A model generated the notes under the pieces. That model did not search any database, had not been told where the DNA came from, and saw nothing but the letters and a program-made list of their open reading frames with translations. Both the position numbers and the translations under genes were made by a program. Positions 1,003 through 46,200 of a DNA stretch of 64,000 nucleotides are shown here, piece by piece. Within the stretch, counting starts at the first letter, position 1. Every line of letters begins with the position of its first letter. Origin of the DNA: an uncultured Prevotellaceae bacterium (GTDB lineage Bacteria > Bacteroidota > Bacteroidia > Bacteroidales > Bacteroidaceae); assembly GCA_900314985.1 (NCBI GenBank), contig OMXL01000004.1:7502-71501 (forward strand). The letters run 5' to 3'.

Positions 1003-3234
1003 ATGTTTAAAGTTCAAAGTATATTAATATCATTGATGATGACTGCCACTGCTCAGGCTCAGCAACTTCCCAAGTATCTCGATGAGACGGTTCCTGTGGA
1101 GCAGCGCATCGACGATGCACTCAGCAGGATGACACTCGACGAGAAGATTGCGGTGATTCATGCGCAGTCAAAGTTCTCGAGTCCTGGCGTGAAGCGTCTC
1201 GGTTTCCCCGACCTGTGGACAGACGATGGCCCTCATGGTGTGCGTCCTGACGTGCTTTGGGACGAGTGGGTACAGGCTGGACAGACCAACGACTCGTGCG
1301 TGGCATTTCCTGCGCTGACCTGTCTGGCTGCCACGTGGAACCCCACGATGGCATCCCTCTATGGCACGTCACTGGGTGAAGAGGCACTCTATCGCAACAA
1401 GAATGTGATATTGGGTCCTGGCGTCAACATCAACCGCACACCGTTAGGAGGTCGAAACTTTGAGTATATGGGTGAAGACCCTTATCTGGCCTCACAGATG
1501 GTGGTACCCTACGTAAAGGGTTTGCAGTCGAAGGGTGTGGCATCGTGTGTGAAGCACTATGCGCTGAACAATGATGAGGAATATCGCCATCAGGTGAATG
1601 TCATCATCAGCGACCGTGCGCTTCATGAAATCTATCTGCCTGCCTTCCGTGCTGCCGTTCAGCAGGGTGGGGCATGGGCCATTATGGGCGCCTACAACCT
1701 CTATAAAGACCAGCACAATTGTCATAACGATATCCTCCTGAACAAGATTCTGAAGCGCGACTGGGGCTTCGATGGTGTGGTAATCAGTGACTGGGGTGGC
1801 TGCCATAACACAGAAGAGGCTGTCACCAATGGTCTTGATCTGGAGTTTGGCACATGGACCGATGGTCTGAAGATGGGACGTACCAATGCCTACGACAGTT
1901 ACCACATGGCAGTAGCCTACAAGCAACTCATCCAGGAAGGAAAGTTCACCACCAAGGAACTCGACGAAAAGGTGCGTCGCGTGCTGCGCCTGTTCTATCG
2001 CACCACGATGAATCGCCACAAGCCCTATGGCTTCCTCTGTTCTGAGGCTCACTACGATGCAGCCAGAAAGATTGCACAGGAAGGTATCGTACTGCTGAAG
2101 AATGAGAAGAACCTGTTGCCGCTGGATAAGTCGAAGCAGCAACGTATCCTCGTGGTGGGTGAGAACGCCATCAAGATGATGACTGTAGGCGGTGGCTCGT
2201 CATCGCTGAAAGTACAACACGAGATTTTGCCTCTTGACGCAATGAATGTTCAATGTTCAATGTTGAATGTTCAATGTGATTTCGCTCGTGGCTATGTGGG
2301 CGATACCATCCAGAGCTTCGACGGTGTGACGGTAGGTCGCAGTCTTCGTGAAACCCGCTCGCAGGCTGAGCTGATTGCTGAGGCTGTAGAGAAGGCCAAG
2401 CAGGCTGATGTTGTCATCTTCTTCGGTGGTCTGAACAAGAGCGACTATCAGGATTGTGAGGGTCATGACCGCAAGCAGTATGAACTGCCTTATGGTCAGA
2501 ACGAGCTCATCGAGGCACTCGTGGCTGTGAATCCTCGTCTGGTGTATGTCAATATCAGTGGTAATGCTGTTGCTATGCCGTTTGCCAATAAGGTGCCAGC
2601 AATCCTGCAGGCATGGTTCCTCGGATCAGAAGCTGGCAATGCTATTGCTGATGTGCTGTTTGGCGATGTCAATCCCTCTGGTAAGTTGCCTTACACATGG
2701 TATCAGCGCTTGGATGACTGTGGTGCACACGCCTTGAAGGCCTTCCCTGGCACTTGGCGTGATGACTACAAGATTATCGACGAGGAATACAAGGAAGGCA
2801 TCTATGTAGGCTATCGCTGGGCAGACAAACAGAAGATTCGCCCACTGTTTGCCTTTGGTCATGGTCTTAGCTATACCTCTTTTAAATTAGATAAGGCAAC
2901 AGCTGATAAGAAAAAGATGACTGCCGACGAGAAGATTTCCTTCACTGTCAACGTCACCAATACGGGTCGTTGTGCTGGTGCAGAGACCATACAGCTCTAT
3001 GTCAGCGACAAGAAGGCTTCTGTAGACCGCCCTGTTAAGGAACTCAAAGCCTTCCAGAAAGTATATCTGCAGCCTGGCGAGAGTCGTGATGTGACACTCA
3101 CCATCGGTCGTGATGCCCTGAGCTTCTACGACGAGGCGAAAGGTCAGTGGACTGCTGAGCCAGGACAGTTTGAGGCACTCATCGGTACTGCTTCTGATTG
3201 TATCATGGGAAAATGTTCATTCGAATTGAAATAG
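1003..3234 (+). CDS. GH3 beta-glucosidase with C-terminal Fn3-like domain
   Basis: DGPHG, GRNFEYMGEDP, KHY, ISDWG nucleophile motif, PFAFGHGLSYT-like, KELKAFQKV; signal peptide. Confidence 0.95.
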   Translation: MFKVQSILISLMMTATAQAQQLPKYLDETVPVEQRIDDALSRMTLDEKIAVIHAQSKFSSPGVKRLGFPDLWTDDGPHGVRPDVLWDEWVQAGQTNDSCVAFPALTCLAATWNPTMASLYGTSLGEEALYRNKNVILGPGVNINRTPLGGRNFEYMGEDPYLASQMVVPYVKGLQSKGVASCVKHYALNNDEEYRHQVNVIISDRALHEIYLPAFRAAVQQGGAWAIMGAYNLYKDQHNCHNDILLNKILKRDWGFDGVVISDWGGCHNTEEAVTNGLDLEFGTWTDGLKMGRTNAYDSYHMAVAYKQLIQEGKFTTKELDEKVRRVLRLFYRTTMNRHKPYGFLCSEAHYDAARKIAQEGIVLLKNEKNLLPLDKSKQQRILVVGENAIKMMTVGGGSSSLKVQHEILPLDAMNVQCSMLNVQCDFARGYVGDTIQSFDGVTVGRSLRETRSQAELIAEAVEKAKQADVVIFFGGLNKSDYQDCEGHDRKQYELPYGQNELIEALVAVNPRLVYVNISGNAVAMPFANKVPAILQAWFLGSEAGNAIADVLFGDVNPSGKLPYTWYQRLDDCGAHALKAFPGTWRDDYKIIDEEYKEGIYVGYRWADKQKIRPLFAFGHGLSYTSFKLDKATADKKKMTADEKISFTVNVTNTGRCAGAETIQLYVSDKKASVDRPVKELKAFQKVYLQPGESRDVTLTIGRDALSFYDEAKGQWTAEPGQFEALIGTASDCIMGKCSFELK

Positions 3235-3328
3235 CAGTTAATAATAGGTTAGGTATAAAGAAAGACTGTTTATTAAGGATTCAATGAAAATTTGTCTGGG
3301 AAATGGCGACATTTTCCAGACTTTTTTG

Positions 3329-3336
3329 TATCTTTG
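3329..3336 (+). promoter_or_regulatory. -7 promoter element of the SusR-like regulator
   Basis: TATCTTTG 22 bp before ATG 3358. Confidence 0.7.
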
Positions 3337-3357
3337 TGCCCAAGAAACCAACATGAA

Positions 3358-5037
3358 ATGAAGAAACTACTATTACTATTCATTTTCCACACTTCCCTCT
3401 TCACGCTGCAGGCCTTTAGCCAGCGCAATCTGACGGAATATTGTCAGCAGATAGATGAGGCTATTGCTCATTCGCAGGACTACATCGCTGCCCGTGAACA
3501 GAAAATCGGACAGGCTCGTCATGCTTTGACACTGGAGACGACACCAAGGGGAAAATATCAGCAGAACTACCAACTCTACGAGCTCTACAAGCCTTTTGTC
3601 AGCGACTCGGCGATGTACTTCTTGCGTCAGTGTGTCTCGCTGGCTGATGGCATGGACGACCCGTCTTCTGCCGTCAGGTGTCGTTCACTGTTGGCCATCC
3701 GCTGCTCAAATATCGGTATGTATGACGAGGCCCTTAACATCCTCGACTCTATCAATTCTCAATTCTTAATTCTCAATTCTCAATTAGACACGCTGTCTCT
3801 CGGTACCTATTACGAGGCATATAACAATGTCTATAGCGAGTTAGCTTATTACACGCGTCTCGACAATATGCACCAGTATTACAATGCGCAGTCGTTACAC
3901 TACCAACAGTTGATGCTGGCTACGTTGCCAGCCACCAGTGAGTCGTGCTTCCTGCGTCGCGAACAACGTGCACAGGCTGAGGGCAAGCTGGATGAGGCCA
4001 TGAAGATTAACGATGAGTGGATGAAGACCGTTGAGCCAGGCTCTCACCCTTATGCCCTTGTGGCGCTCTATCGCTATATTGAGTATAAGTTGCGTGGCGA
4101 TAGTGCTCAGATGATGCATTGGCTGGTAGAGTCTGTGTTGGCTGATATCCGTAATGCCTCTATGGATCAGGGGTCAATGTGGGAATTGGCTAACGAACTG
4201 ATGTTGAATGGTGATATCGACAAGGCATCAAGCTATATCAGTTTCACCAGCGACTGTGCCAACCGCTACGGCTCTCGTCAGCGTAACTGGCAGATAGCAC
4301 CCTTGTTGGCCACTATTGCTAAGAATTACAAGGCACAGAGTGAGCGTAATACCGCCCAGCTATGGATAGCCCTCGTAGTCATCAGCATCCTGCTGTTGTT
4401 GCTGTTGGGGGTACTCCTGTTCCTACATCGTCGCAACAAGCAGTTGGCTACCGCCCGTAATGCCTTGAAAGAGTCTAATGACGAACTGGCTACAGCCAAC
4501 AAACAACTGGCATCGCAGACCCAAGAACTATCTACGCTGAATGCTCAACTCTCAACGCTCAATTCCCAACTGTCAGAGAGCAACCGCGTGAAAGAGGAAT
4601 ATATTGGTCGATTCATGAGTCTCTGTTCACAGTATATCGATAAGCTCGACAACTATCGAAAGATGGTGAACAAAAAGATGAAGAACAAGGAACTGGAAGA
4701 ACTCTTCCTGATGTCTAAATCTACAGAGCTCAAAGAGAAGGAACTGGAAGAACTCTTCCTGAACTTCGACAGCGTATTCCTGCACCTCTTCCCCAACTTT
4801 GTCAATGACTTCAATGCCTTGTTGCAGCCAGAAGTGCGCGTGCAGCCGAAGGAGGATAACCGCCTTACTACTGAAATCCGCATCTTTGCCCTGATTCGTC
4901 TGGGTATTGAGGACTCTTCAAAGATTGCTGAGTTCCTGCACTACAGCGTCAACACCATCTATAACTATCGTGCTCGCATCAAGAATGGTGCCATAGGTAA
5001 CCGCGAGCAGTTTGAACGTCAGATCAAAACCTTATAA
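3358..5037 (+). CDS. SusR-like / DUF6377 membrane-anchored transcriptional regulator
   Basis: Signal peptide, TPR-like periplasmic part, one TM helix (LWIALVVISILLLLLLGVLLFL), coiled coil and C-terminal HTH (RIFALIRLGIEDSSKIAEFLHYSVNTIYNYR). Start moved to ATG 3358, downstream of the promoter. Confidence 0.85.
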   Translation: MKKLLLLFIFHTSLFTLQAFSQRNLTEYCQQIDEAIAHSQDYIAAREQKIGQARHALTLETTPRGKYQQNYQLYELYKPFVSDSAMYFLRQCVSLADGMDDPSSAVRCRSLLAIRCSNIGMYDEALNILDSINSQFLILNSQLDTLSLGTYYEAYNNVYSELAYYTRLDNMHQYYNAQSLHYQQLMLATLPATSESCFLRREQRAQAEGKLDEAMKINDEWMKTVEPGSHPYALVALYRYIEYKLRGDSAQMMHWLVESVLADIRNASMDQGSMWELANELMLNGDIDKASSYISFTSDCANRYGSRQRNWQIAPLLATIAKNYKAQSERNTAQLWIALVVISILLLLLLGVLLFLHRRNKQLATARNALKESNDELATANKQLASQTQELSTLNAQLSTLNSQLSESNRVKEEYIGRFMSLCSQYIDKLDNYRKMVNKKMKNKELEELFLMSKSTELKEKELEELFLNFDSVFLHLFPNFVNDFNALLQPEVRVQPKEDNRLTTEIRIFALIRLGIEDSSKIAEFLHYSVNTIYNYRARIKNGAIGNREQFERQIKTL

Positions 5038-5044
5038 TAAAACA

Positions 5045-6229
5045 ATGAAACGAATCCTATTCCTCGCTGCCTGTAGCTTCCTGGCAATGGGCAGTATTGC
5101 ACAGCAACAACTGGGGCAGCGTCCCCGTGTGAAGTCACCCGTGGTAAATGCCGACGGCTCTGTGACGTTTAACTTCTACGATCCCTCTGCACAGACGGTT
5201 AGTGTCTTTGGCGACTTTAATGAAATCAGTGGCCAGCAGTTGGATCTGACTAAGCAGGACAATGGTGTGTGGACTGCTACAACAGCTCCTCTGTCACCAG
5301 AACTCTACTCGTATAGCCTGACGGTCGACGGACAGCGTTTCATTGACCCTGCTAATAGCTATGTGAATCGTGATATCTCTACACTCAGCAATATCTTTAT
5401 CGTGTCGAAGTCTGACAATGATAAAGGACATCTCTATGCTGTGAATAACGTACCCCACGGCACCCTGTCGCGAGTATGGTATGACAGTCCTACGCTTGGA
5501 CAGCAACGTCGCATGACTATTTATCTGCCACCTACATACGATGGCAAGAAGCGCTTCCCCGTCATGTATCTGTTGCATGGTCATGGTGGCGACGAGACAG
5601 CATGGGGTGATTTGGGACGTACGTCACAGATTATGGACAACCTCATCGCTGAGGGTCGTTGCGTACCGATGATTGTCGTGATGCCTAACGGTAATCCTAC
5701 ATGTAATGCTGCTCCTGGTTGGTGGCATGAGGGTATGTACACTCCTGATGGCAATGCTTTCAATGAACGTGGTGCCAAGTCGACAATGGAAGAAAGCTTT
5801 ATGGACATTGTTAACTATGTCGACAGCCACTATCAGACTATTAAGAAGCGCTCAGCCCGTGCCGTTACAGGACTGTCTATGGGCGGTGGTCATACTTTTG
5901 GTATCTCACGCCTCTATCCTGAGGCGTTCGACTACTATGGTCTACAGTCGGCAGCCTGTCGGATGCCGCGCGAGATAGTTCCTCAAGTCCAGAACTCAAA
6001 GCTAAACGTGGATTTCGATGGACAGATGGCACGCCTCTTCGCCTCTAAGCCTAAACTCTTCTGGATCGCTATTGGCAAGGACGACTTCCTCATGCAGATG
6101 AATACGGAATTGCGTAGCTATCTTGATGCCCACCACTATCCCTATGAGTATTATGAGAACGATGGTGGGCATATCTGGCGCAACTGGCGTATCTACCTCA
6201 CCATGTTTGCTCAGAAAATCTTTAAGTAA
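5045..6229 (+). CDS. Carbohydrate esterase (CE1-like) with N-terminal CBM48/E-set domain
   Basis: GLSMGG nucleophile elbow, YLLHGHGGDE, GGHIWRNWRIYL; N-terminal Ig-like GDFN...W...DPAN; signal peptide. Confidence 0.88.
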   Translation: MKRILFLAACSFLAMGSIAQQQLGQRPRVKSPVVNADGSVTFNFYDPSAQTVSVFGDFNEISGQQLDLTKQDNGVWTATTAPLSPELYSYSLTVDGQRFIDPANSYVNRDISTLSNIFIVSKSDNDKGHLYAVNNVPHGTLSRVWYDSPTLGQQRRMTIYLPPTYDGKKRFPVMYLLHGHGGDETAWGDLGRTSQIMDNLIAEGRCVPMIVVMPNGNPTCNAAPGWWHEGMYTPDGNAFNERGAKSTMEESFMDIVNYVDSHYQTIKKRSARAVTGLSMGGGHTFGISRLYPEAFDYYGLQSAACRMPREIVPQVQNSKLNVDFDGQMARLFASKPKLFWIAIGKDDFLMQMNTELRSYLDAHHYPYEYYENDGGHIWRNWRIYLTMFAQKIFK

Positions 6230-6239
6230 GCAGAACTTC

Positions 6240-8543
6240 TTATTGTACTCTCAGCGCCTGTGACAGGGTGTCATCACTATTGGTACCAATCATGATGTCG
6301 AAGATGCCTGGTTCGAGGACAGGCTCACCTTGTGCATTTAGGTACTGCAACTGTTCGCGGTCTATGCAGAAGGTGACGCGGCGCTGCTCGCCAGCCTTCA
6401 GGTGAATGCGCTGGAAGCCACGGAGCTCCTTCACCGGACGGGCGATAGATGATGCTTGCTGGTGGATGTAGAGCTGTACGACCTCGTCGCCGTCACGCTG
6501 ACCAGTATTGCTGACCATAATGCTGGCTTCTACAGAACCGTCGGCAGTCATTGTGGTGCTGCTTAGCGTCAGGTCAGAATAGCGGAAGGTGGTATAGGTC
6601 AGTCCGTAGCCGAAGGGGTAGAGTGGGTCGTTGCGCACCTCCAGGTAGTTACTGGCATATTTGCGGTATTTGTCGGCACCCTTCTCCACGGGGCGACCTG
6701 TATTCAGGTGGTTATAATAAATAGGTACCTGTCCGAGAGCTTGTGGCATGGTGACGGTAAGGCGTCCGCTGGGAGCTGTGTCGCCCAAGAGTACGTCGGC
6801 AATGGCGTCGCCAGCCTCAGAACCTGCAAACCATACGTTCATGATGGCATCGACATGTGCTTGTTCCCAGGTGAGCACGGTGGGACGACCTGAGAAGTTC
6901 AGCAGCACGATGGGCTTGCCAATCTTGACCAGCTCTTCCAACAGCTCGCGCTGAGCATCGGGCATCTCCAAGGTCGCACGACTCGACGACTCGCCAGAGA
7001 AATCGGCACACTCACCCATGGCACAGACGATGACGTCGGCCTTCTTGGCAATAGCCAGTGCCTCAGCCTTCGCCTTGGCAGCATCCACACGTGGAATATT
7101 CTTGCCAAACTCAGCAGCCTGCTGCAGGTCGGCATCGTGTGTCAGATTGCAGCCCTGTGCATAAAGCAGTTTGCCCTTGGGCAGGCGATGCTCCAGTGCC
7201 TCCTTGATGGTAGCATAGCGTTCTGGGGTATAGGCTACGCACCAGGTGCCTGCAATGTTTGCACGGTCATTAGCCAACGGACCGATGAGGGCGATGGTAT
7301 TATTGGCGTTGAGTGGCAATAGTGGCTTGCTCCCCTTTCCTTTTGGAGAGGGGGTGAGGCTATTCTTCAGCAACACAAAGGTCTCAGTGGCCAGCTGGCG
7401 CGAGGCGGCACGGTTCTCTGCGGTGTAGATATCCTTGGCACGACGGTTGGCATCGAGGTAGCGGTAGGGGTTGTCGAAGAGTCCCAGCTTCCACTTAGCC
7501 TCCAGCACACGGCGACAGGCCTGGTTGATGTCGGCCATGGTGACGGTGCCATCTGCCAGCGAGGCAGCCAGTGTACCCACAAAACCATTGGCACACATAT
7601 CCATATCGGTGCCCGCCTTCAGTGCTTTGGCAGAGTTGCTCTTCAAGTCGCCAAAGCCCCATATAGACATCTCGTTGATAGAGCCGTAGTCGGTGACTAC
7701 AAAGCCATCGAATTTCCACTGGTCGCGCAGCACGTCAGTGAGCAGCCAGTGATTGGCAGTGGCATGCTGTCCGTCGACAATGTTGAACGACGACATAAAC
7801 GAGCCGGCACCAGCTTCGGCAGCAGCCTTATAAGGGGGCAGATACTGGTTGTACATGCGCAGACGACTCATATCTACCGTGTTATAGTCACGACCAGCCT
7901 CTGAGGCACCATACAGCGCATAGTGCTTGACGCAAGCCATGACGTTTTCCACTTTCCACTTTCCACTTTCCACTTTGTTTCCCTGATAGCCGCGAACGTA
8001 GGCACGGGCAATCTCGCTACCTAAGTATGGGTCTTCACCACCACCCTCGGCAATACGTCCCCAACGGGCATCAACACAGATGTCGACCATGGGCGAGTAA
8101 ACCCAGTTGATGCCGTCGGCCGTGGCTTCACGGGCAGAGATGCGCGCCATGTTCTCAATGGCAGGGATATCCCATGAGCACGACAGTGCCAAGGGGATCG
8201 GGAAGATGGTCTCGTAGCCGTGGATGACGTCCATACCTACGATGAGGGGGATACCCAGACGCGACTTCTTGACGGCAATATCCTGCAGGGCACGAATCTT
8301 GTCGACGCCCTTCAGATTGAAGATGCCGCCCAGCTGTCCGTTGGCAATGCGCTGGCCCACCTGCGTGTCAACTGCTCCTCCTGTGACTATCTCGTCGCTG
8401 GCAGGTACCAGATTGAGTTGACCTAACTTCTCTTCCAGCGTCATCTTGCTCATTAACTGGTCAACGAACTGACGCATCTCTGTGGTTTGTGCCTGTAGCA
8501 TTTGGCAGATGAATAGGCAACAAGTCAACAATATATTCTTCAT
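6240..8543 (-). CDS. bglX: Periplasmic GH3 beta-glucosidase BglX
   Basis: SRLGIPL..GMDVIHG, DARWGR..EG.GEDPYL, CVKHYA, VVTDY, GESSSR, PLYPFGYGLTYT. Start at MKNILL. Confidence 0.93.
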   Translation of the reverse strand: MKNILLTCCLFICQMLQAQTTEMRQFVDQLMSKMTLEEKLGQLNLVPASDEIVTGGAVDTQVGQRIANGQLGGIFNLKGVDKIRALQDIAVKKSRLGIPLIVGMDVIHGYETIFPIPLALSCSWDIPAIENMARISAREATADGINWVYSPMVDICVDARWGRIAEGGGEDPYLGSEIARAYVRGYQGNKVESGKWKVENVMACVKHYALYGASEAGRDYNTVDMSRLRMYNQYLPPYKAAAEAGAGSFMSSFNIVDGQHATANHWLLTDVLRDQWKFDGFVVTDYGSINEMSIWGFGDLKSNSAKALKAGTDMDMCANGFVGTLAASLADGTVTMADINQACRRVLEAKWKLGLFDNPYRYLDANRRAKDIYTAENRAASRQLATETFVLLKNSLTPSPKGKGSKPLLPLNANNTIALIGPLANDRANIAGTWCVAYTPERYATIKEALEHRLPKGKLLYAQGCNLTHDADLQQAAEFGKNIPRVDAAKAKAEALAIAKKADVIVCAMGECADFSGESSSRATLEMPDAQRELLEELVKIGKPIVLLNFSGRPTVLTWEQAHVDAIMNVWFAGSEAGDAIADVLLGDTAPSGRLTVTMPQALGQVPIYYNHLNTGRPVEKGADKYRKYASNYLEVRNDPLYPFGYGLTYTTFRYSDLTLSSTTMTADGSVEASIMVSNTGQRDGDEVVQLYIHQQASSIARPVKELRGFQRIHLKAGEQRRVTFCIDREQLQYLNAQGEPVLEPGIFDIMIGTNSDDTLSQALRVQ

Positions 8544-12350: not shown

Positions 12351-13448
12351 TTAATTCTCTCTATAGAAATCGAGCGCCTCTTTAATCTCCTCTTCTGTAG
12401 CTGTCTGATTGATGCGTATGTCGCCAATGCCAGCCAGTAGTGTGAAGTTGATAGCACTACCTTCGTTTTTCTTGTCGTGATGCATGAGCTCCAGCAGATG
12501 GGGGTAGTCATCACAGGTGATGGTCATCTTGCCGTAGTGTTCTTTGATATACTGTACCGTTTGACGCATCTTGTCGGTAGGGAAGCCTGTCTTCACGCAC
12601 GACAAGTAGAGCTCGACGACCAGACCGTAGGCTACGGCATAGCCGTGTAACAGAGGTGAGAGGTGAGAGGTGAGAGGTGAGCTCGCACGCTCCAGCGCTA
12701 GTGACTCAAAAGCGTGGCCTGCCGTATGGCCGAGGTTGAGCGCCTTGCGTAGTCCTTTCTCTGTGGGGTCTTCCGTGACGATGCGCTGCTTGACAGCAAC
12801 ACTCCGCTCAACAAGAGCGGATAGTCCCTCTAGATTGTCTAGGTGTTCTAGATTTCCAAGGATCTCTGCCCAGTGCTCTTCACAGTCGATGAGGCCATGC
12901 TTCAACATCTCTGCATAGCCAGAAAGGATGTTCTCCTGGTCGAGTGTCTTCAAGAACTCTGTATCTAAGATGACACAGTCTGCATTATTGAAGACGCCAA
13001 TTTCGTTCTTCAGTCCTCCGAAGTTGATACCAGTCTTACCACCAACAGAAGCGTCGACCATGGATAGCAGGGTCGTGGGTACATTAATAAAATGTATACC
13101 ACGCTTGAAGGTAGAAGCTGCAAAGCCTCCCAAATCAGTTACCATGCCACCACCCAGGTTAATCATCAGTGAGTGGCGTGTAGCTCCCATTCGCTGCAAC
13201 TCGCTCCATACATGACTTACTGCATCAAGCGTCTTGTGCTGATCGGTGGCACCGATAGTGATGACGCCAGGGGTGAGAGGTGAGGGGTGAGAGGTGAGAG
13301 CTGAAAGGTGAGAAGTCAGCACGGGCAGACAACATTTCTCCGTCGTTTCGTCGACAAGGACAAACAGACGGTCGTAGCTGCACTCGGTTAAAGTTTGATG
13401 GAGTGACTGCTCAAAATGCTGCGATATGACTACCTTTTGTTGGTTCAT
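12351..13448 (-). CDS. aroB: 3-dehydroquinate synthase
   Basis: GGGMVTDLGGF, RGI...VPTTLLSMVDASVGGKTGIN, LNLGHTAGHAFE, HGYAVA, HDKKN. Confidence 0.97.
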   Translation of the reverse strand: MNQQKVVISQHFEQSLHQTLTECSYDRLFVLVDETTEKCCLPVLTSHLSALTSHPSPLTPGVITIGATDQHKTLDAVSHVWSELQRMGATRHSLMINLGGGMVTDLGGFAASTFKRGIHFINVPTTLLSMVDASVGGKTGINFGGLKNEIGVFNNADCVILDTEFLKTLDQENILSGYAEMLKHGLIDCEEHWAEILGNLEHLDNLEGLSALVERSVAVKQRIVTEDPTEKGLRKALNLGHTAGHAFESLALERASSPLTSHLSPLLHGYAVAYGLVVELYLSCVKTGFPTDKMRQTVQYIKEHYGKMTITCDDYPHLLELMHHDKKNEGSAINFTLLAGIGDIRINQTATEEEIKEALDFYREN

Positions 13449-16639: not shown

Positions 16640-16693
16640 ATGTTGAATGTTGAGGGTTGAATGTTCTATGTTTTAACTTTCAACTTTCCACTT

Positions 16694-18055: not shown

Positions 18056-18210
18056 TGTTTATTGTTTGTTGGTTAGTGTTACCGCTTGCAAAAGTACTAA
18101 AATAAAGTGAAAAGTGAATAGTGAAGAGTGAAAAATTTGCTGCTGCCATTGAAAATTCTCAATTCTCCATTTCCAATTCTCAATTATATCCAGTACCTTT
18201 GCACCCAATT

Positions 18211-19668: not shown

Positions 19669-19699
19669 AAGCCAATTGCCAATCGCTAATAGCCAATAG

Positions 19700-21135: not shown

Positions 21136-21136
21136 A

Positions 21137-24433: not shown

Positions 24434-24564
24434 GTTACCGTATTAGCCACTCCCGTATGTGGGATAGTCACTCTTTTCAGTATATTAGTCATTTTTTGGG
24501 GGATGCATTAATAATGATCGCGTGCGGGTGTACCGTGCGCGCGCGAGTTCGTTTCAAAAAATAT

Positions 24565-25203: not shown

Positions 25204-25275
25204 GGTTAGAAAATAGTTTTCCGTACAAAGATACACATTTCCCTCCAGTATTCCAAACTATTGCAATGTTTTTGC

Positions 25276-29637: not shown

Positions 29638-31689
29638 TTACTCAGCAAGTTCTGGAGCACTGCCGTTAACGCTGATAAGAGTTCCGGAATTCTGTGCCGT
29701 TTCTGGTGTGTTTCCATTGTAGTTAACAAGCTTACCACTAACAACCACGGTAGCACCCTTCGGAATCTTATATCCTTCCTTGAGGCCTTTGCCGTCAGCA
29801 CCCTTTACACGGAATGCTTTAAACTTTTGTGAAGCTCCCTCGGTGTCAACCAAGTCGATTGTTGCGTTTTTATAGCTGTCAACAGTATATTCAGCGTTCA
29901 CGATACCCTTTACAAAGTATATGTCTGTGGTTGCTGTCGTTCCAGTTTCTTGACACTTCGCAATAGCTGCTGCAACATTGAAGGGGTCTGCCTCTGTTCC
30001 TGTACCTTTGGCTTCCCCAGTTGCACCGCTGCCACTGTCTTCACCGTCAAGTTGAGGGGCTTGTCCGTTTACGCTGATAAGAGTTCCAGAGTTCTGTGCT
30101 GTTTCGGGTGTATTTCCGCCGTAGTTAACAAGCTTGCCGCTAACAATCACTGTGGCACCCTTAGGAATCTTATAACCTTCTTTTAGAGCCTTGCCGTCAG
30201 CACCCTTTACGCGGAATGCTTTGAACTTCTGTGAAGCTCCTTCAGCATCTACTAAGTCAAATGTCGCGTTTTTATAGCTATCAACTGTGTAGTCTGCGTT
30301 TACAATGCCTTTGACATAGAAAATCTCAGAAGAAGCAGTCTGACCAACTTCTTGGCACTTTGCAATAGCTGCTGCAACATTGAATGGGTCAGCTTCAGTA
30401 CCTGTTCCCTTGGCTTCGCCTGTGTCACCGCTGCCGCCTTCGCCACCTCCATCACTGTTAAGAGAATATAGGTATGCTTTGTTCTGTGCTGTCTCAGGTG
30501 TAGAACCATAGTTGTTGACGAATTTTACCACCTTACCACAGATAACGACCTTGTCGCCTTTCTTGACTTGAGTGTCAGAAGCGGTGAACTTCTTGTTGCC
30601 AAGGTAAAGACCACGATAGAATGTGAATGAGTTGCTTGCAAATTCATCATCGCTGACAATGAATGTTCCATTGCCGTACTGAGTGGTAAACTCTTCAGTA
30701 ATGCTGGTAATAATACCAGAGAAGTACACGTCGTTTGGAGATTCTACATTGTCGCCAAGTGACTCAACATAAGCCAGTACGCCTGCTACGTTGTAAGGAT
30801 TATCTTTCGTTCCTGTACCTGCAGGATCTGGAGGAGTGATGGGTTCGTGTGTAGATTTCTGGATGTCGTCCTGTGTGCGAGGCATAATCTGCCATGTGTT
30901 GTTATAGCGTGCAGCAATACCTGTGATGTCAATAGCTTCAGTAGGCATAATCATGGCAGCATACTTTGCATATGTGCTGGTACGAACTACCACGTTGCTC
31001 ATGCCGTCGATGTCACGATTAACGCAACCGCCAACAAGCTGAGCACTACCATCGCCTGGAGCAAAGGTTATCTTACCGTCAGCGCCTTTCATCTTGACGC
31101 CAACCAATGTAATTAGTTTGCCACAGTCTTTCTCCATATCCAGTGCACTCATGCTGCGAATTTCTTCAGGTTTAGCGCTAAGACCTTCCACAGGAGAAAT
31201 CAACTTGAAATGGTCTTGCCAGGTATAGCGGCTCATGCGACCGACCTGATCCATGTTCTTGCTATCGTTGTGATAGAAGGTGCCAATCTCAGGCTGTTTG
31301 CCATAAGCGCCAATATAGAGACCCTCCAGTTCGATGAGCATGCACTGACCAACAGCAGCTTCGCTGAAGATACCGCTCTTGTCGATGCTCATATAGAGAG
31401 AACCGGTGCCGTCAGATACATACAATTGTTTATAGAGGTTGCTACCTTCATCGTTGCCGGTAACAATCACCTTAATCTGTGTGGGCTTGGTAATCTGCTG
31501 CAGACCATTGTCGCTGATGACGCTCTTGTACTGAGTCTTCAGAGCGGCGATAGTTACCACATTGGTCTCTTGGATGTACTGATTACCATAGCTCTCCATT
31601 CCAGCTTCCGCCGAAGGTTCGTCCCAAGTGTGGCACGCTGCGGCAAAGATAGCTGAAAGTGCTAATAGGAAAATATTTCTTGTCTTCAT
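29638..31689 (-). CDS. Lipoprotein with DUF5689-like N-terminal domain + 3 putative OB-fold repeat modules
   Basis: Lipobox AAAC; VTGNDEGSNLYKQLYVSDGTG and VVRTSTYAKYA...WQIMPR (DUF5689-like); modules at ~30457-30825, ~30064-30415 and ~29663-30012. Confidence 0.78.
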   Translation of the reverse strand: MKTRNIFLLALSAIFAAACHTWDEPSAEAGMESYGNQYIQETNVVTIAALKTQYKSVISDNGLQQITKPTQIKVIVTGNDEGSNLYKQLYVSDGTGSLYMSIDKSGIFSEAAVGQCMLIELEGLYIGAYGKQPEIGTFYHNDSKNMDQVGRMSRYTWQDHFKLISPVEGLSAKPEEIRSMSALDMEKDCGKLITLVGVKMKGADGKITFAPGDGSAQLVGGCVNRDIDGMSNVVVRTSTYAKYAAMIMPTEAIDITGIAARYNNTWQIMPRTQDDIQKSTHEPITPPDPAGTGTKDNPYNVAGVLAYVESLGDNVESPNDVYFSGIITSITEEFTTQYGNGTFIVSDDEFASNSFTFYRGLYLGNKKFTASDTQVKKGDKVVICGKVVKFVNNYGSTPETAQNKAYLYSLNSDGGGEGGSGDTGEAKGTGTEADPFNVAAAIAKCQEVGQTASSEIFYVKGIVNADYTVDSYKNATFDLVDAEGASQKFKAFRVKGADGKALKEGYKIPKGATVIVSGKLVNYGGNTPETAQNSGTLISVNGQAPQLDGEDSGSGATGEAKGTGTEADPFNVAAAIAKCQETGTTATTDIYFVKGIVNAEYTVDSYKNATIDLVDTEGASQKFKAFRVKGADGKGLKEGYKIPKGATVVVSGKLVNYNGNTPETAQNSGTLISVNGSAPELAE

Positions 31690-37796: not shown

Positions 37797-38420
37797 GTGA
37801 AAATGAAGGATATAAAAGCTGCATTATTCGATCTGGATGGTGTCGTGTTTGACACGGAGCCGCAGTATACGATATTCTGGGGTTCGCAGTGCCGTGAGTT
37901 CCATCCGGAGCATCCAGGACTGGAGCACGAGATTAAGGGACAGACGCTGGTGCAGATATACGATGCGTGGTTTTCAGGTGAACTGACTGATAAGCAGCCT
38001 CTGATTACAGAGCGCTTGAATCAGTTTGAACAACAGATGGATTATAACTATGTGGCAGGCTTTGAGGCGTTTGTTGCTAAGCTGCGCCAACAAGGTGTGA
38101 AGACGGCTGTGGTAACCAGCTCGAACCAGCCTAAGATGCAGGCGGTATATGCCAGTCGGCCTGAGTTCCGTGGTCTGTTTGATGCCATTCTTACTTCAGA
38201 AGATTTCGAACGTTCCAAGCCTGATCCCGACTGCTATCTGAAGGCAGCCGAGCGCTTTGGCGTGGAACCCAAAGATTGTGTAGTCTTCGAAGACTCGTTT
38301 AATGGTTTGAAGTCTGGTCGAGCTGCAGGCATGTATGTGATAGGCTTAGCCACAACGAACGCTGCTGATGCTATTCGTCCACTATGTGACGAAGTGGTTA
38401 GCGACTTCACACAGTTATAA
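37797..38420 (+). CDS. HAD-family phosphatase (beta-PGM-like)
   Basis: FDLDGVVFDT, VTSS, SKPDPDCY, VFEDS.NG. Confidence 0.92.
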   Translation: MKMKDIKAALFDLDGVVFDTEPQYTIFWGSQCREFHPEHPGLEHEIKGQTLVQIYDAWFSGELTDKQPLITERLNQFEQQMDYNYVAGFEAFVAKLRQQGVKTAVVTSSNQPKMQAVYASRPEFRGLFDAILTSEDFERSKPDPDCYLKAAERFGVEPKDCVVFEDSFNGLKSGRAAGMYVIGLATTNAADAIRPLCDEVVSDFTQL

Positions 38421-38460
38421 TTATCAATTCTCAATAGTCAATTTTTAATTTTAAAAAGTT

Positions 38461-39282: not shown

Positions 39283-39285
39283 TGA

Positions 39286-40455: not shown

Positions 40456-40461
40456 AATAGT

Positions 40462-43173
40462 TTACCGTCTGCACATCTGCAGATACGGACAAGTACGACA
40501 GACCTTCAAGTCTGTAGTGGGAGTGAACGGGATGTTCTGTGAGAATATCTCGTTCACTTTTGCTTCCAGCAGCTCGCAGAAACGCTCGCTATATTCTCGA
40601 ATGTCGAGAATCCTCTCCTTGCCGAAGCACAACGTGGGGTCGTAGTCTTTGCTTGCAGCATGCTGGATGAACAGCAGGGCTGGTGAAACGGGACTAGACT
40701 CCTGGCGACTGACGATGTCGGCATAGGTGAAGGTTTGCAGATAGTAGTCGGAGTGGTCGTGAATCTTAGCAGGGTCGAAGATGTCCTCTACACTGCCCAG
40801 CGCTTTCAGCTTCCTGCTGCCCGTCTTGTAGTCTACCACACGGATGCGTCCATCGCTCATCTGGTCTAAGCGGTCAATGCGTCCACCGATTCTAAGAGGT
40901 GAGTGGTGAGTGGTGAGTGGTGAGAACTCGCGTGTGACGTCGCACTCCAGACCCAGAATGTCGAAGGGAGTAAGGGCCTTATCAATCTCGATGAGCTGTC
41001 GCAGGTAGCGGATAATGACCTCTCGATTAATAAGGTGTAGACCACCCATGACGGCATAGGGTAACTCCTGATGGAAGGCGTCGTCTACTGCTTTCTCAAT
41101 GGCTATCTTACTTTTCAGTAGCTGATCAAGGGACTCTCGTGTGACATGCTTGGGTAGCTGGTGATAGAGCGTGTCGGCAGCCTGGTGGAAGATGTTACCG
41201 AAGATACGGTTGTCGAGTTCTTGTTCATCATCGGGCTCGTCTGGCTCCTTGATGCCCGCAATGTAACGATAGTAGAACTGCAGGGGACAGCGCATGTATT
41301 TGTTGATGGCTGAAGGTGACAGTAAGGTATCATTACCCGTGAATTGCTGATAGAGCAGTTTAAGGACATGCTCCGTTTTCTCGATGGCATCGGGTGTATA
41401 GCGGGCAATCGTTTTGCCCGATTGTAACGCATGCTGTGTGATGGTCTGCCCACTCTCTACCATCAGCTGTAGCATGAAACGACTCATCTCACCACGTTGA
41501 CCGTCCTCTGTAGCATTGTTCCATAGAATGGTGACATCCTTGGCACGCTGCAACAGGCGATGGAAATAGTAGGCATAGATGCTTACCTTGTTCTCTACGG
41601 TGGTCAACTCGTAGGCTTGACGGATGTTGTGCGGAATGAACGAGCTGTCATTAACACCCTTGGGCATGTTACCCTCATTGCAGCTAAGCAGCAGCACATG
41701 GTCGAAGTCGAGGTTGCGGGTTTCCAAAACGCCCATTACCTGAATACCTTCAGCGGGCTCACCGTGGAAGGGAATAGTGGTCTGTTGAATCAGCTGGTTG
41801 ACGAGGCGTTGCAGTGTGGTGTTTGTTACCTGTAGGTCGCCACTCTCAATAAGCGCATTAAGGCGGTTGATGAGCGTATAGGCGCGGAATAACGATTCTT
41901 GGAATAGCGGATCTGTAATCTCATCCTTGGCACCTTGGGCAATCTGTCGCAGCATTTTGCAGAGTTCTAAGGTAATCTCTTGCTTCTTGCTTCCTGCCTC
42001 TTGCTTCTCTTCTACATATTTATAATATGGATGTCTTTTGAAGGCGCGCACCAGTCGAGGACTGCTACCACCCAGCAGCATGTCGTAGTAGCGTTGGATG
42101 AAGGAAGCGACAGGAGTCTGCGACAAGGGATAGCCCGTGGTGACATTGACTTTTTCTACCTCATCGGGCAGACAATGGATAACGGTGGGTAGCAGTTGTT
42201 CGTTACAAAGCACGATGGCTGTCTTCCTGCCGTCCTTGTAGCGCTGCTGGTCGCGCAGCCAACTGCTGACATAGCGTGCCTGGATATGTTCCGTGGGTGC
42301 TGCGAGGTAGGTGATCTCTTTGGGATGTTGGAAATTCTTATAGATATCATCATTCTGACTATCCAACTCGTTGGGGAAGTATTTGAGGTAGGTGGCGATA
42401 TAGCGGCCAGCCTCGTGGTTGTGCATATAGTAGTCGTCGAAATCCCAATAGAAGTATGCCTTCCCTGCCTTTTGCAGTTGTGAGAAGAACTGCTGCTCTA
42501 CCTTCTGTAGCAGGTTGAAGCCCACGAAGAGGTAGCGGTCGTACTCGGAGTGGTGAGAGGTGAGGGGTGAGGGGTGAGAGGTGACCACAGAGCGGTAGAG
42601 GGCACCTTCGTAGGCGAGACCTTGTTGGGCAAGACGTCCGTTGAAGTCGTGATAGATATCAATGAAGTGGCTCCACAGTCGCAGGAAGCGCTGTTTGAGC
42701 TCCGTCTCATGCTCCTCAGTGAAGTGGCTGAAGAAGTGTTTCAGCAGCTCTCGCTGTTCATCCGTGAGGTAGCTGAGGTCATCGAGCTCATGAATGTCGC
42801 GCAGGTTAGCAAAGACGCGGTCGGCATCGGCCATATTCTTGTCGATGTCGTCGAAGTCGCTGATGAGCAGTTGTCCCCAACCATAGAATTTGTCGAGCGT
42901 CTCCTCGGAGCCTGTATGCAGGCAGAACGACTTGTGAAGATCACATACCAGCTTGATAGGGTCAGCCACTGATAGTGGCGATTGCTGGCGGAACAGTTCG
43001 CTGATGGTGATATAGGCAGGACTCCACAGTGGCTTGCCATTCGTTAGACGCGCCAGTTTGTCATTGAGAAACAGCGAGGCACGTTTGTTGGGGAACACCA
43101 CCGCTGTACGTGACAAGTCGGTGCCGTATTTCTGGATGATATCTTCTGCGACGTATTCTAAAAAACTCTTCAT
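40462..43173 (-). CDS. AddB-like PD-(D/E)XK nuclease subunit
   Basis: VFPNKRA, QVMGVLETRNLDF, LSPSAINKYMRCP, GRIDRLD, VDYKTG, C-terminal CRTCPY..MC. Confidence 0.88.
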   Translation of the reverse strand: MKSFLEYVAEDIIQKYGTDLSRTAVVFPNKRASLFLNDKLARLTNGKPLWSPAYITISELFRQQSPLSVADPIKLVCDLHKSFCLHTGSEETLDKFYGWGQLLISDFDDIDKNMADADRVFANLRDIHELDDLSYLTDEQRELLKHFFSHFTEEHETELKQRFLRLWSHFIDIYHDFNGRLAQQGLAYEGALYRSVVTSHPSPLTSHHSEYDRYLFVGFNLLQKVEQQFFSQLQKAGKAYFYWDFDDYYMHNHEAGRYIATYLKYFPNELDSQNDDIYKNFQHPKEITYLAAPTEHIQARYVSSWLRDQQRYKDGRKTAIVLCNEQLLPTVIHCLPDEVEKVNVTTGYPLSQTPVASFIQRYYDMLLGGSSPRLVRAFKRHPYYKYVEEKQEAGSKKQEITLELCKMLRQIAQGAKDEITDPLFQESLFRAYTLINRLNALIESGDLQVTNTTLQRLVNQLIQQTTIPFHGEPAEGIQVMGVLETRNLDFDHVLLLSCNEGNMPKGVNDSSFIPHNIRQAYELTTVENKVSIYAYYFHRLLQRAKDVTILWNNATEDGQRGEMSRFMLQLMVESGQTITQHALQSGKTIARYTPDAIEKTEHVLKLLYQQFTGNDTLLSPSAINKYMRCPLQFYYRYIAGIKEPDEPDDEQELDNRIFGNIFHQAADTLYHQLPKHVTRESLDQLLKSKIAIEKAVDDAFHQELPYAVMGGLHLINREVIIRYLRQLIEIDKALTPFDILGLECDVTREFSPLTTHHSPLRIGGRIDRLDQMSDGRIRVVDYKTGSRKLKALGSVEDIFDPAKIHDHSDYYLQTFTYADIVSRQESSPVSPALLFIQHAASKDYDPTLCFGKERILDIREYSERFCELLEAKVNEIFSQNIPFTPTTDLKVCRTCPYLQMCRR

Positions 43174-43211
43174 ACTATAACCATTAACCAATAACCATTA
43201 ACCAATAACCG

Positions 43212-46200
43212 TTAACCAATAACCTCCTCGATTTTATTGCTATACACATACCACAGCCACCCCTTTACATTCGGGTGTCCCATCTGTTGCAACAGCTGCA
43301 TGTATTCACGTACCTGCTCCTGGTATTCAGGTTTTGGTCGACCAAACTTAAAGTCGACCACATGCGTCTCTTGTCCGTCTGTCATCACACGGTCGGGACG
43401 GCGTTCTTCCACTACACCTTGTTCGTTGAGGCGCAGAATGCTACACTCGTTGAATAATTGCCAACGGCCAGAGAACCAGTCCTTCACACGAAGGTTTTCT
43501 AAACGTTTGTGTAGCATCGCTGTCAGTTTTGCTGCGGTCACCTCATCATCGTAGAGCACACCATCATGCTGCAACTGGCACAGGGCACCTTCGATGTCCG
43601 CTGTGGTGTGGATGGTTGAGAATATCTCATGGAGCACACTGCCCATCTTGATGTAGCTGAGCTCTTGCTGTTCGTCATCGCCCTCAATGAACTCGCGGCT
43701 CTTGTTACTCTGGCGGAACTCTGTCTTGCCCTCGAAGGTCTCCAACTGAATCTGTACAGGCGTGACGGGCTTGAGGAAAACGTTTTCGCTGATGGGCTTA
43801 ATGGGTTTAATGGGCGATGTGGGGGATGTGGGCCCATTCAGCCCATTAGAGCCATAAGAAAAATCCAACTCACTTTCCTCGTCATCTTCGCCGCTAATGA
43901 CACTTCCCTCCAGTTTCATTTCCGATAGTACAGCCTCGATGAGTGCCGAACGGTTGCTCTTTGCACCTCGTTGCCCAATGACATACAGACTGTCTACGGC
44001 ACGCGTGAAGGCCACATACAGCAGGTTGAGATTATCAACGATGTTCTGCAGATGTTCGTCTAAATAGTATTGTTCATAGATGGTGCCTTTCATCTGGCTG
44101 GCGCTGAAGTCGATAGGTGCCAGTGGTAGTGCATCGAACGGTGTCTCAGTAGGTTTGCACCAGAGCACGTCGGGCATCTCCAATTTCCAATCGCAGAAGG
44201 GGATAATGACATGAGGATATTCCAGACCCTTACTCTTATGGATGGACAGGATGCGCACACCGTCTGCAGCGTCGCTTTGGATGGTCTTACTACAGATGGT
44301 CTCTTCCCACTCACGGATGAATGCATCAATATCTGAGGTGTAGTCCTGTACAAACTGATTCAGACGGTCGTAGAAGGCGCAGAGATAGGCACTCTGTTCG
44401 TTAAGACGCTCCAGTTGGAAGATGCTATAGAGTCGCTCAACCAATTCGTAGAGTGGCATCTGTAGCAGTTCCTGCATGTGTTGGATATAGGCCTCAGGCA
44501 ATAGCGTGTCGAGGTTGCGGTCTTTGATGAGCAACTCCTGCTCGGCAACTGAATTACTGAGCACGGTGCGCTGGTAAAGCTTGACGATGGTGGCCTTAGC
44601 CAGCAGGTCGTCAGGATGCGTCAATAGGTGGAGAGCCTGAATGAGCAGACAGATGGATACAGAGGCATCAAGTCGGAAGGCCTCGTCACTGATGATTCGC
44701 ACGTCTGGCAGATGCTCGTCGAAATAGGCAGCGATAAGGGGGATATGCTTGTTAGTGCGTACGAGAATGGCAATGTCGTGCAATGCTACTCCTTGCTGCT
44801 GCAATGCTCGTATCGTATCAGCAATGGCTGTCATCGTCTGCTCTTGATAGTCGTCAGCAGGCAGTAGGCGGATGTTGACATAGCCACTGCGGTTGCGTCC
44901 TTCGGGTATTTCCTGAGCGACATCGTCATAAGCGTGGCGCAGTTGCTCAGCGCCAGCAGGATATTCCTCGCGCTGTGCCTCGTATTCTTGTTTGGCAGCC
45001 GTCTGGAAGAAGGCATTGTTGAATTCTATGATGTTACGTGCCGAACGCCAGTTGACCTTCAACGGCTGTATCTCTACCGATTCTTGAGCATAGGGGAACT
45101 GCTGGTCGATGGCGTTGAGCAGGCGCCAGTCACCAGAGCGCCAGCGGTAGATGCTCTGCTTGACATCGCCCACTATCAGGTTTTGAGAATCCTGGTGACT
45201 CATGCACTCCTGCAATAGCACCTTGAAGTTCTGCCACTGTACGGTACTGGTATCCTGAAACTCGTCAATCATGACGTGTTCCAGCTGAGTACCAATCTTC
45301 TCAAAGATAAATGGTGAGTCGCTGTCGCTGATAAGGTCGTGCAACAGCTGTTGCGTATCGCTAAGCAGGAAGCGGTTGGCCTCTTCATTGAGGTTACGCA
45401 CCTTCTGTTCAATGCTACCTAATAGACGTAGCTGACTGAGGTGGCGCAGTGTGAGGTCGGCAGACTGGTAAATCTTATATTGTCGTGGTCGCTCGTCCAT
45501 CGCACGAATCAGCAATGGCCTCAGTGAAGACTCTGCAACAGCATAGATATGCGCAGCCTGTTCACTCTTCTTGGAATACCATTTCTCTGGGTCCTCCCTA
45601 CAGTCGCAGACGCGCTTACCCTCAATACTCTCGTCGAACACTCCATTCTGTAGCTTGATGAAGAATCCTGCGACACCAGATTTCTTGTTGGAAAGGTCGT
45701 CGATGCTCAGTCCTTCGCTCTCCAGAATGTCGAAGAACTCATTGCCCATAGCCTTCATGTGCTCCAGAGCCGTACTGCGCAGTTCTTTCAACTGTTTGGT
45801 ATATTCCTCCATGAAACCCTTCTGGCTAATGACATTACCCAGTTCCTTACGGTTGGCTTTGTAGTAGTCGCGGAAGATGGTCTTACCAAACTGTTTCACC
45901 TGTCCGATGATGTTCCATGAATGGTCGTCGTTGATCTTCTCCATGATATAGCTCAGCAACCATTGCAGCATGCGGTCGGTATGTGTCAGAGAGTCGATGA
46001 GTTGGTCGACAGCCTGCTCTTCCACCTGTGTATCGTTCAGACTGATACGCAGGTTAGCTGTTAGGTCGAGCTCACGAGCTAGATTGCGCAACACGCTCTG
46101 GAAGAACGAGTCGATGGTCTCTACGCGGAAATAGTTGTAGTTATGCAGCAGCAGACGCAATGCGATGCCAGCACGCTCTTTAATGGTATTGATGGGTAAC

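Follow-up and report, generated by a model that had tools for sequence, protein, structure and literature searches.

The 64-kb stretch of DNA analysed here, referred to as the window, comes from an uncultured rumen Prevotellaceae bacterium (GCA_900314985.1, contig OMXL01000004.1, positions 7,502–71,501 of the forward strand) and contains short tandem arrays of 7-nt units both inside conserved genes and between them. Tandem Repeats Finder located approximately 20 such period-7 arrays, each with 3.3–16.6 copies arranged head to tail. The genes interrupted by arrays were identified by Pfam as two GH3 glycosidase genes, a gene for a SusR-like regulator (PF19904), aroB (3-dehydroquinate synthase), a sodium:solute symporter gene and an addB-like gene encoding a PD-(D/E)XK nuclease. 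An original prediction, made from the letters of the window, had listed heptamer runs in these genes and attributed them to a genome-wide seeding process. All of the listed arrays were found at, or a few bases off, the positions given, and every host open reading frame (ORF) is indeed open. The run placed at 4544–4571 is better described as a 21-nt repeat at 4526–4575, and the one placed at 13270–13318 corresponds to 13269–13311. The list was restricted to coding arrays; roughly nine others belonging to this family lie between genes (at 959, 16640–16694, 18054, 18104, 18154, 19660, 38415, 43178 and 59113).

The excess of tandem repeats is confined to period 7. A strict self-similarity scan, run for period 7 and for other periods, found 11 period-7 arrays in the window, and mononucleotide and 3-mer shuffles gave none; at periods 5, 6 or 8–13 the 64-kb window contained no strict array. 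Eight strict arrays fall within the 41 long ORFs and none was produced by 200 within-ORF codon shuffles, the control against which the original prediction had set its claim. The comparison was extended to 80 related species, all rumen or gut Prevotella and Prevotellaceae, represented by aroB with 10-kb flanks (loci L001–L080, 1.47 Mb); the closest aroB relative among them shares 85% amino-acid identity. These loci contain 91 strict period-7 arrays versus 1–11 for each other period (4–12). Since the 80 species show the same excess, the heptamer phenomenon is a property of the clade and not of one genome alone, and the proposed seeding process is borne out as both genome- and clade-wide. The density is uneven among the related loci, ranging from 0 to 3.5 arrays per 10 kb. 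The window and the 80 loci together provided a set of 164 arrays, 78 coding and 86 non-coding; 74–78 of the 164 lie inside long ORFs, i.e. about half are translated.

The repeat runs are not unrelated to one another, as their units form one degenerate family. When rotation and strand are disregarded, the 164 arrays fall into only 72 unit classes (null mean 152, null minimum 140). The commonest units are GAGAGGT, found 17 times in 10 genomes, and AAAAGTG, found 16 times in 11. TGA occurs on one strand in 68% of units versus 24% expected (111 vs 40.5 ± 5.8), and a logo registered on this trinucleotide reads T-G-A-R-A-R-K, which gives the consensus K-TGA-R-A-R. The GC-rich trinucleotides CCG, GCC and CGC are nearly absent. 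Some units are private to single genomes, and different sites of a genome have a unit in common more frequently than expected (27 pairs vs 9.3 ± 3.3, p~0.0006), also when the two commonest units are left out (8 vs 2.9, p~0.008). Array length is equally restricted. It peaks at 4–4.9 units in coding (48 of 78) and non-coding (47 of 86) arrays; the median is 32 nt for each group, the modal length is 28–34 nt in ORFs and between genes alike, and the lengths of exact-repeat tracts show non-geometric bumps. The exact TCACCTC array reaches 190–870x the local depth in rumen metagenomes. Carriage by phages was considered and rejected, as this array is nearly absent from viral contigs, with only two matches in IMG/VR.

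Since 7 is coprime with 3, the units of any array pass through all three reading frames, so that TGA in a unit leaves only the opposite strand open to translation. All 44 TGA-bearing arrays in ORFs have this trinucleotide on the antisense strand only. In the exceptions met, which are oriented in the sense direction, the in-frame TGA unit is mutated, as in AAAACGA (CGA) in GH3a of L175 and AGTTAAG (TTA) in aroB of L027. The same filter has the consequence that TCACCTC always reads as a rotation of TSHLSPL.

The first coding array of the window lies in a GH3 beta-glucosidase gene (GH3a, 1003–3234, plus strand), where 4.7 copies of AATGTTC at 2245–2277 (plus strand) read MNVQCSMLNVQC at about residue 415. 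At this site sister species carry another repeat peptide (GLTSALSRQTS...) of the same 45-nt length, and the array of L002, a decayed CCNTCAG-type array of 45 nt, is as long as the AATGTTC array of the window. The loop at residue 415 occurs in 35 variants among 121 orthologues (80–93% identity), with at least five repeat-peptide families, and its short form in orthologues is probably array-free. Loops 369, 376 and 608 of GH3a vary in the same way. The second GH3 gene (GH3b, 6240–8543, minus strand) contains 4.4 copies of GTGGAAA (sense) at 7946–7976 (minus strand), reading KVESGKWKVE; at the same codon L004 (89% amino-acid identity) has a GGTGAGA-type array that reads SLTSNPSPLTT and measures 34 vs 31 nt.

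The SusR-like regulator gene (PF19904/DUF6377; 3358–5037, plus strand) contains 4.9 copies of TCAATTC at 3752–3785 (plus strand), reading INSQFLILNSQL. This array is an 18-nt gain, missing (−18 nt) from L002, L164 and the introgressed alleles of L175 and L179. The same gene has a 21-nt, 7-aa repeat (LSTLNAQ LSTLNSQ) at 4526–4575 (plus strand), which is either an old array or a true heptad repeat; Tandem Repeats Finder scores it at 79% matches with a period of 21 nt and at only 72% with one of 7 nt. As this repeat is common to sister species, it is not a recent insertion.

Two arrays of TCACCTC (sense) occur in aroB (12351–13448, minus strand), both on the minus strand. Array 1 (13269–13311, six copies) reads LTSHLSALTSHPSPLT at residues 44–61. 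L002 and L004 share it in a version shorter by 15 nt, while L001 has a different array of a 14-mer and most species have an 11-residue sequence without an array. Array 2 (12652–12681, 4.3 copies) reads SSPLTSHLSPL at residues 254–265; here the window has 39 nt where all close relatives hold 12 nt (net +27), and four other species carry unrelated insertions in this loop. In an AlphaFold2 model of AroB (mean predicted local distance difference test score, pLDDT, 87.8; predicted template modelling score, pTM, 0.88), both arrays and a third hot site fall in non-helical connecting loops with the lowest model confidence, and residues 53–57 have pLDDT <50.

The sodium:solute symporter gene (18211–19668, plus strand) contains four copies of CTCTCAC at 19184–19211 (plus strand), reading SLTSHLSPLTS. 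This array is common to L002 and L004, a CATCWTC array is found in L001, and the more distant L045 and L069 have none. Three arrays, all on the minus strand, lie in the addB-like gene (40462–43173, minus strand). Four copies of CTCACCA/CTCACCT (sense) at 40895–40924 read SPLTTHHSPL at about residue 756, a loop that is occupied by arrays of several different units in 15 of 79 relatives and is empty in L095, L097 and L101. The array of AGCAAGA (sense, 4.4 copies) at 41978–42008 reads EKQEAGSKKQE at about residue 395 and makes this loop approximately 10 residues longer than in the nearest relatives; L117, L120 and L121 have independent TCACCTC arrays in it. At 42548–42584, 5.3 copies of TCACCYC (sense) read VTSHPSPLTSHHS at about residue 203. 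This third loop is hypervariable, with a 33-aa array of the TCACCYC unit in L120 and another unit in L117, and both it and the loop at about 756, likewise hypervariable, hold arrays in many lineages.

Alignment with orthologues, by which the original prediction proposed to recognize insertions, revealed close relatives that have no array or have a different unit at the same codon. Hot loops number three in aroB, five in the addB-like protein and at least four in GH3a when arrays are mapped onto the alignments. The proposal that surviving repeats sit in tolerant loops agrees with the hypervariable alignment columns and with the low-confidence, non-helical loops of the AroB model. These comparisons show that the in-gene arrays are DNA-level insertions or REPLACEMENTS in hypervariable, tolerant surface loops, and not ancestral protein sequence. 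Two details of the prediction failed. Only net gains of three units (21 nt) were expected to keep the frame, but the changes seen are +27, +18, +15, about +30 and 0 nt; likewise, the insertions are not n x 7 aa, as the net changes are multiples of 3 and not of 21. The reason is that arrays contain incomplete units and take the place of a few bases at the site.

Variation within the species was examined in ten same-species contigs (95.5–99.9% identity), in contigs from four independent bovine metagenomes and, for aroB, in members of the AroB protein cluster. In three assemblies (L166–L168), aroB array 2 has three units instead of four; this −7 nt allele is frameshifted and its protein ends SPLTSHL-CYTAMP*. 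In two others (L169 and L170), a −14 nt change in array 1 shifts the frame and splits the gene at Met87. These alleles, on same-species contigs with 98.1–99.7% identity, lie behind two truncated proteins of the AroB cluster. The two −14 alleles are on different single-nucleotide haplotypes, each identical to an intact allele, and thus arose independently. A private haplotype is common to the three −7 alleles, which speaks for a lineage that inherits the change and not for random errors of assembly. In one further scaffold, array 1 was lost with a deletion of 70 nt that is bounded by GTGC microhomologies. An exact copy of the intact AroB protein is encoded on 233 contigs versus 5–6 broken ones; nearly all of the approximately 250 aroB contigs are intact. 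Array 2 is transcribed, as a metatranscriptome contig crosses it without a gap.

The ten contigs and the metagenome contigs showed exact one-unit changes in two non-coding arrays, the kind of polymorphism that the original prediction had proposed to look for in strains. One ACTTTCC unit is gained at 16682 in X3, X14, L176 and L181, and one AATAGCC unit is lost at 19688 in X3 and L176. Since these changes (+7 at 16682, −7 at 19688 and −7/−14 in aroB) distinguish contigs of the same species that are 95–99.9% identical, slippage does happen. Whole-unit slippage is real and able to inactivate genes, and the idea that a single-unit slip switches a gene off holds for the −7 and −14 nt alleles of aroB; a regulated or adaptive switch by slippage is unproven. 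Among the listed cluster members no length variants of the symporter, addB-like or GH3 arrays were seen, the symporter array being invariant in 15.

Several apparent variants were rejected. The 903-, 909- and 916-aa forms of the addB-like protein (P0047–P0061) are not internal length polymorphisms; they represent three start-codon calls (43173–43224), which arise because the junction array upstream is open in frame and reads MVNGYWLMVNGYS. P0050 is truncated by a contig end, and P0006 looks like a chimera that was joined in assembly at a shared array. The relatives in the ≥90% protein cluster are not strains, as their DNA is only 81–86% identical and they are sister species. Compared with L173–L182, window positions 2000–7500 are a recombination mosaic with 83–95% identity versus approximately 99% for 8–22 kb; this introgressed mosaic includes the SusR-like allele of L175 and L179 that is 'empty' and the GH3a array that these two have in addition, and neither was accepted as a strain variant. 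Deletions without repeats were also observed in same-species contigs at 4291, 6290, 6802 and 22597 (46, 21, 53 and 40 nt). The genes split by three of these deletions are the SusR-like regulator gene (L173) and, in L182, GH3b and the glutathione-peroxidase region; these are pseudogenes or assembly errors.

The non-coding arrays occupy promoters and gene junctions. The symporter gene probably starts at ATG 18211, and hence the arrays at 18104–18132 and 18154–18185 belong to promoter regions and are not coding. The former (AAAGTGA, minus strand) lies upstream of the PALP-enzyme gene (16694–18055) and ends a few nt short of its −7 box TActTTTG (minus strand); the orthologous promoters of this gene keep the box and have arrays of other units. 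The latter (AATTCTC, plus strand) is 8 nt upstream of the symporter −7 box TAccTTTG and is a 31-nt gain relative to L001, L002 and L004. Both divergent promoters at 18.06–18.21 kb thus have the same design, with an array upstream of the −7 box. In the array set, 25 of the 86 non-coding arrays end 4–9 nt upstream of a TAnnTTTG −7 box, the Bacteroidota type, that points away from the array; only four boxes point toward an array, and approximately 1.5 are expected by chance. TCA is on the promoter sense strand in 19 of the promoter-associated arrays versus three with the opposite orientation. Since several of these cases go back to one orthologous promoter that holds different units in different species, independent events are fewer than the raw count.

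At junctions between co-directional genes, the TGA strand is sense in 22 arrays and antisense in 7, and 9 of the 22 end ≤6 nt from the next ATG. In the window, an AGTGAAT array at 959–987 (plus strand), not found in L002, gives the GH16 gene its stop codon and fills the junction to the GH3 gene, and a TTATCAA array at 38415–38443 (plus strand) occupies the junction of the HAD-hydrolase gene and panB. The array of TGGTTAT/TGGTTAA (sense) at 43178–43224 (minus strand) spans the addA-like stop codon and ends 4 nt before the addB-like ATG. Between convergent genes, opposed arrays of ATGTTGA and TTTCMAC at 16640–16694 directly follow a hairpin resembling an intrinsic terminator, and an AGCCAAT/AGCTAAT array at 19660–19704 separates the symporter and AraC-type genes. 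The longest array, 16.6 copies of CTTTGAA/CATTGAA (sense) at 59113–59228 (minus strand), lies between the 5'-nucleotidase and NUDIX genes.

The arrays are probably created by slippage together with some form of intragenomic copying, and the copies inside genes are then tolerated by-products and not functional switches. That they persist through filters of frame, stop codon and loop, combined with whole-unit slippage, is well supported. According to this reading, the arrays constitute a clade-wide family of short heptanucleotide arrays, typically of 4–5 units (~30 nt), in rumen Prevotella, and arise in DNA at many places, i.e. in promoter-upstream regions, at gene junctions and in coding sequence. 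An array inside a gene survives only if its net length change is a multiple of 3, if it brings no in-frame stop, with the TGA strand almost always antisense or the in-frame TGA mutated, and if its peptide falls in an insertion-tolerant loop. Such filters explain that the same few loops are re-occupied by different units in different species. Existing arrays change further by replication slippage of whole units, which is tolerated between genes and leads to frameshift and inactivation inside them, as in the natural aroB alleles.

Certain observations weigh against this reading. Slippage from random local seeds does not predict the restricted K-TGA-R-A-R repertoire, and simple local slippage predicts neither the peaked length of ~30 nt nor the re-use of rare units within one genome; simple slippage also fails to predict the same-site, same-length unit swaps in GH3a, GH3b and aroB site 1. 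Simple slippage therefore leaves part of the generating mechanism unaccounted for. In addition, as the relatives are sister species (81–86% nucleotide identity), array gains and swaps are not dated precisely. The mosaic segment at 2000–7500 corresponds to the GH16/GH3/SusR-like/esterase/GH3 polysaccharide-utilization cluster. The frameshifted alleles were read from metagenome assemblies and not from raw reads, although an assembly artefact is unlikely.

We consider a more specific form of copying rather unlikely. In it, a lineage-specific process of rumen Prevotella would copy ~30-nt K-TGA-R-A-R modules from arrays of the same genome, either by template switching at stalled forks or breaks or by an enzyme; copies near promoters and start codons would then be functional modules of expression and those in coding sequence collateral insertions.

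Another unlikely source would be a dedicated trans-acting writer or mobilizer, such as a RAYT-like (repetitive extragenic palindromic, REP, element-associated tyrosine transposase) Y1 enzyme, a four-helix-bundle/GxxExxY protein or a templated polymerase, with the in-gene copies as off-target insertions or footprints. The restricted repertoire with its conserved TGA core, the ~30-nt module size in coding and non-coding DNA, the genome-specific re-use of rare units and the repeated striking of the same sites by different units speak for such a system, as does a RAYT-like Y1 family that is conserved in Prevotella and has a truncated copy in the window. However, the original prediction, which regarded the runs as possible footprints of four-helix-bundle or GxxExxY cassettes, is not upheld. 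Pfam detected no four-helix-bundle (PF05635) or GxxExxY gene among the 41 long ORFs and the gap ORFs of the window, and no gene-sized cassette between opposed arrays was found in 2.4 Mb of related DNA; the opposed array pairs there are only of the short hairpin type, 25–131 nt apart, with no gene inside any of them. Apart from promoter boxes, the sequences next to 24 TCACCTC-type, 22 AAAGTGA-type and other arrays have nothing in common, and no terminal repeats, target duplications, palindrome or conserved ends were found at the arrays. Arrays of one family with unrelated flanks are not classical mobile elements. The near-absence of the TCACCTC array from viral contigs also speaks against such a mobilizer.

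The RAYT-like gene of the window is a truncated copy at 24757–25236 (minus strand), located between the gene of an oligonucleotide/oligosaccharide-binding (OB)-fold protein and rpmE, a position that is syntenic across Prevotella; the family is single-copy. The ORF has the HUH motif (PDHIHMIV) and scores 31.5 bits with NF047646 versus a cut-off of 80, but lacks the catalytic-Tyr region, whereas full-length relatives (217–250 aa) keep the YLDDNPRRL tyrosine motif. Its flanks (24246–24396 and 24555–24785) contain a 33-nt inverted repeat of GGTGAA/TTCACC hexamers and three tandem AAAGTGGTACCACTTT-type palindromes. In eight loci, RAYT-like genes are flanked by hairpins of species-specific 6- or 12-nt words (hexamers here, 12-mers in L185) and not by heptamer arrays. 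The RAYT-like gene as writer of the arrays is a lead, not support. Three of its relatives (P0213, P0250 and P0248) have low-complexity repeat insertions, e.g. GGQAMESLGTEARGGQA..., just after the HUH motif, and the same insertion process seems to hit RAYT-like genes too.

Rickettsia palindromic elements and the REP/REPIN-RAYT systems are selfish-looking short DNA, and in-frame elements are tolerated in surface loops of conserved proteins. The heptamer arrays resemble them as short in-frame DNA in surface loops and in the presence of a RAYT-like family in the clade. In contrast to these elements, the arrays have no conserved ends, palindrome or fixed length, and the RAYT-like genes are not flanked by arrays.

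It is quite unlikely that the arrays are true contingency loci, in which reversible gain and loss of units would switch aroB, the addB-like gene, the GH3 genes and others as adaptive bet-hedging in the rumen. Any one-unit change does shift the frame, since 7 is coprime with 3, and aroB is truncated in nature by the −7 allele of three assemblies and the −14 allele of two; the −14 change occurred independently on two haplotypes that also exist intact, as recurrent switching would leave. However, the hosts are housekeeping and catabolic enzymes and not surface or restriction-modification genes, contigs with intact aroB far outnumber broken ones (233 versus 5–6), and the symporter, addB-like and GH3 arrays have no length variants among the listed members. 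The arrays are also short (4–6 units) compared with classical switches, and these assemblies also have other genes that are broken by unrelated deletions of 40–53 nt.

That repeat peptides such as TSHLSPL are selected protein features (linkers or modification sites), with the DNA periodicity secondary, is very improbable: TSH(L/P)SPL recurs in AroB (twice), the symporter, the addB-like protein and many orthologues of other species, but TSHLSPL follows automatically from TCACCTC in all three frames while the opposite strand has TGA and is unreadable, in the closest orthologues the peptides are missing or an unrelated peptide is found at that site, arrays of these unit families also occupy promoters and non-coding junctions, and the arrays lie in low-confidence loops.

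The reading in which slippage and intragenomic copying create tolerated arrays can be compared with known systems. The Prevotella arrays are a new clade of a known, still unexplained class of heptanucleotide repeats (short tandemly repeated repetitive sequences, STRR, or long simple sequence repeats, SSRs); no account of heptamer arrays in Prevotella was found in the literature searched. According to the summaries of one survey, the long SSRs of many prokaryotes are most often heptanucleotides, with slippage proposed as the cause and 7 nt suggested as the contact length of the polymerase (Mrazek, Guo & Shah 2007, summarised in PMC4679880 and PMC4692102). As far as these summaries describe them, the long SSRs share with the present arrays the over-representation of tandem 7-nt units, a sporadic phylogenetic distribution and variation in length between close relatives. 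Prevotella and Bacteroidota were not highlighted in the survey, as far as the summaries show, and unlike the long SSRs described there, the Prevotella arrays are about half translated, belong to one K-TGA-R-A-R family and have a modal length of ~30 nt.

Cyanobacterial STRR and the GGGAATC/GGGGA(T/C)T arrays of Xanthomonas and Nostoc are likewise dispersed heptamers, many located 0–50 bp from gene ends, which occupy the same positions with different lengths and sequences in sister species and are not tied to the function of genes (Rehm et al. 2015, PMC4692102). They are rich in G and form quadruplexes, and they are largely intergenic, with under-representation on the coding strand, whereas the Prevotella units are G/C-poor and frequent in ORFs. 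The predominantly intergenic location described for them, a descriptive and not class-defining trait, is thus not seen here, where 74–78 of 164 arrays are in long ORFs. TAACTGA direct repeats occur in marine Beggiatoaceae, some cyanobacteria and five Bacteroidetes (MacGregor 2015, PMC4679880). They too are heptamers with a TGA core in short sets (2–6 copies there), most of them sense-oriented and placed directly before start codons, but consist of a single unit, are almost entirely intergenic and have been read as the binding site of a translational regulator (PMC4679880). In Prevotella, by contrast, the units are numerous and related to one another, arrays are also inserted into coding sequence, and another class of them lies 4–9 nt upstream of the −7 box. 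Phase-variable SSR loci, such as the tetranucleotides of Haemophilus influenzae (PMC2651432) and the heptanucleotides of the HMW1A promoter (PMC8262952), also have unit changes that alter the frame, on and off alleles in nature and promoter repeats (here 4–9 nt upstream of −7 boxes), and 10 arrays of the window are in ORFs. Unlike these loci, the Prevotella arrays are shorter, are in housekeeping genes and are scattered through the genome, and not in surface or restriction-modification genes.

To the known class, the Prevotella case adds the translated share, the K-TGA-R-A-R family, the ~30-nt size, the placement at promoters, the recurrent loops and the natural frameshift alleles. With hundreds of species, rumen Prevotella is a rich natural experiment on the commonest long repeats of bacteria. 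Heptamer arrays break short-read assemblies, and metagenome (Logan) contigs do break at them. They also cause wrong start-codon calls (e.g. 903, 909 or 916 aa for the addB-like protein), create apparent pseudogenes in metagenome-assembled genomes and inflate the apparent divergence of proteins in loops. If promoter-proximal arrays tune expression, they would add an unrecognized layer of regulation to a genus that is dominant in gut and rumen. Lineage-specific copying, if true, would offer the first mechanistic handle on the dominance of 7 nt among bacterial long SSRs, which has been unexplained since 1990.

The window also contains repeats of other periods. A Gly-rich 21-nt repeat (CCTGGCGGTGGCTTCGGCGGA x3) at 16468–16534 is located in the 3' end of an outer-membrane beta-barrel gene (13597–16572), whose protein is 972, 984 or 986 aa long among strains, with an insertion block at 15219–15243 in L177 and L179. 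A 402-nt tandem duplication (29663–30435; 1.9 copies, 81% identity) lies in a DUF5689/OB-fold gene (29638–31689), which belongs to a run of three genes for surface proteins with OB-fold and carbohydrate-binding module (CBM) domains. The divergent promoter region of lon and a methyltransferase gene (55776–56055) has a 21-nt repeat (x4.7), 8-mer arrays and an AT palindrome.

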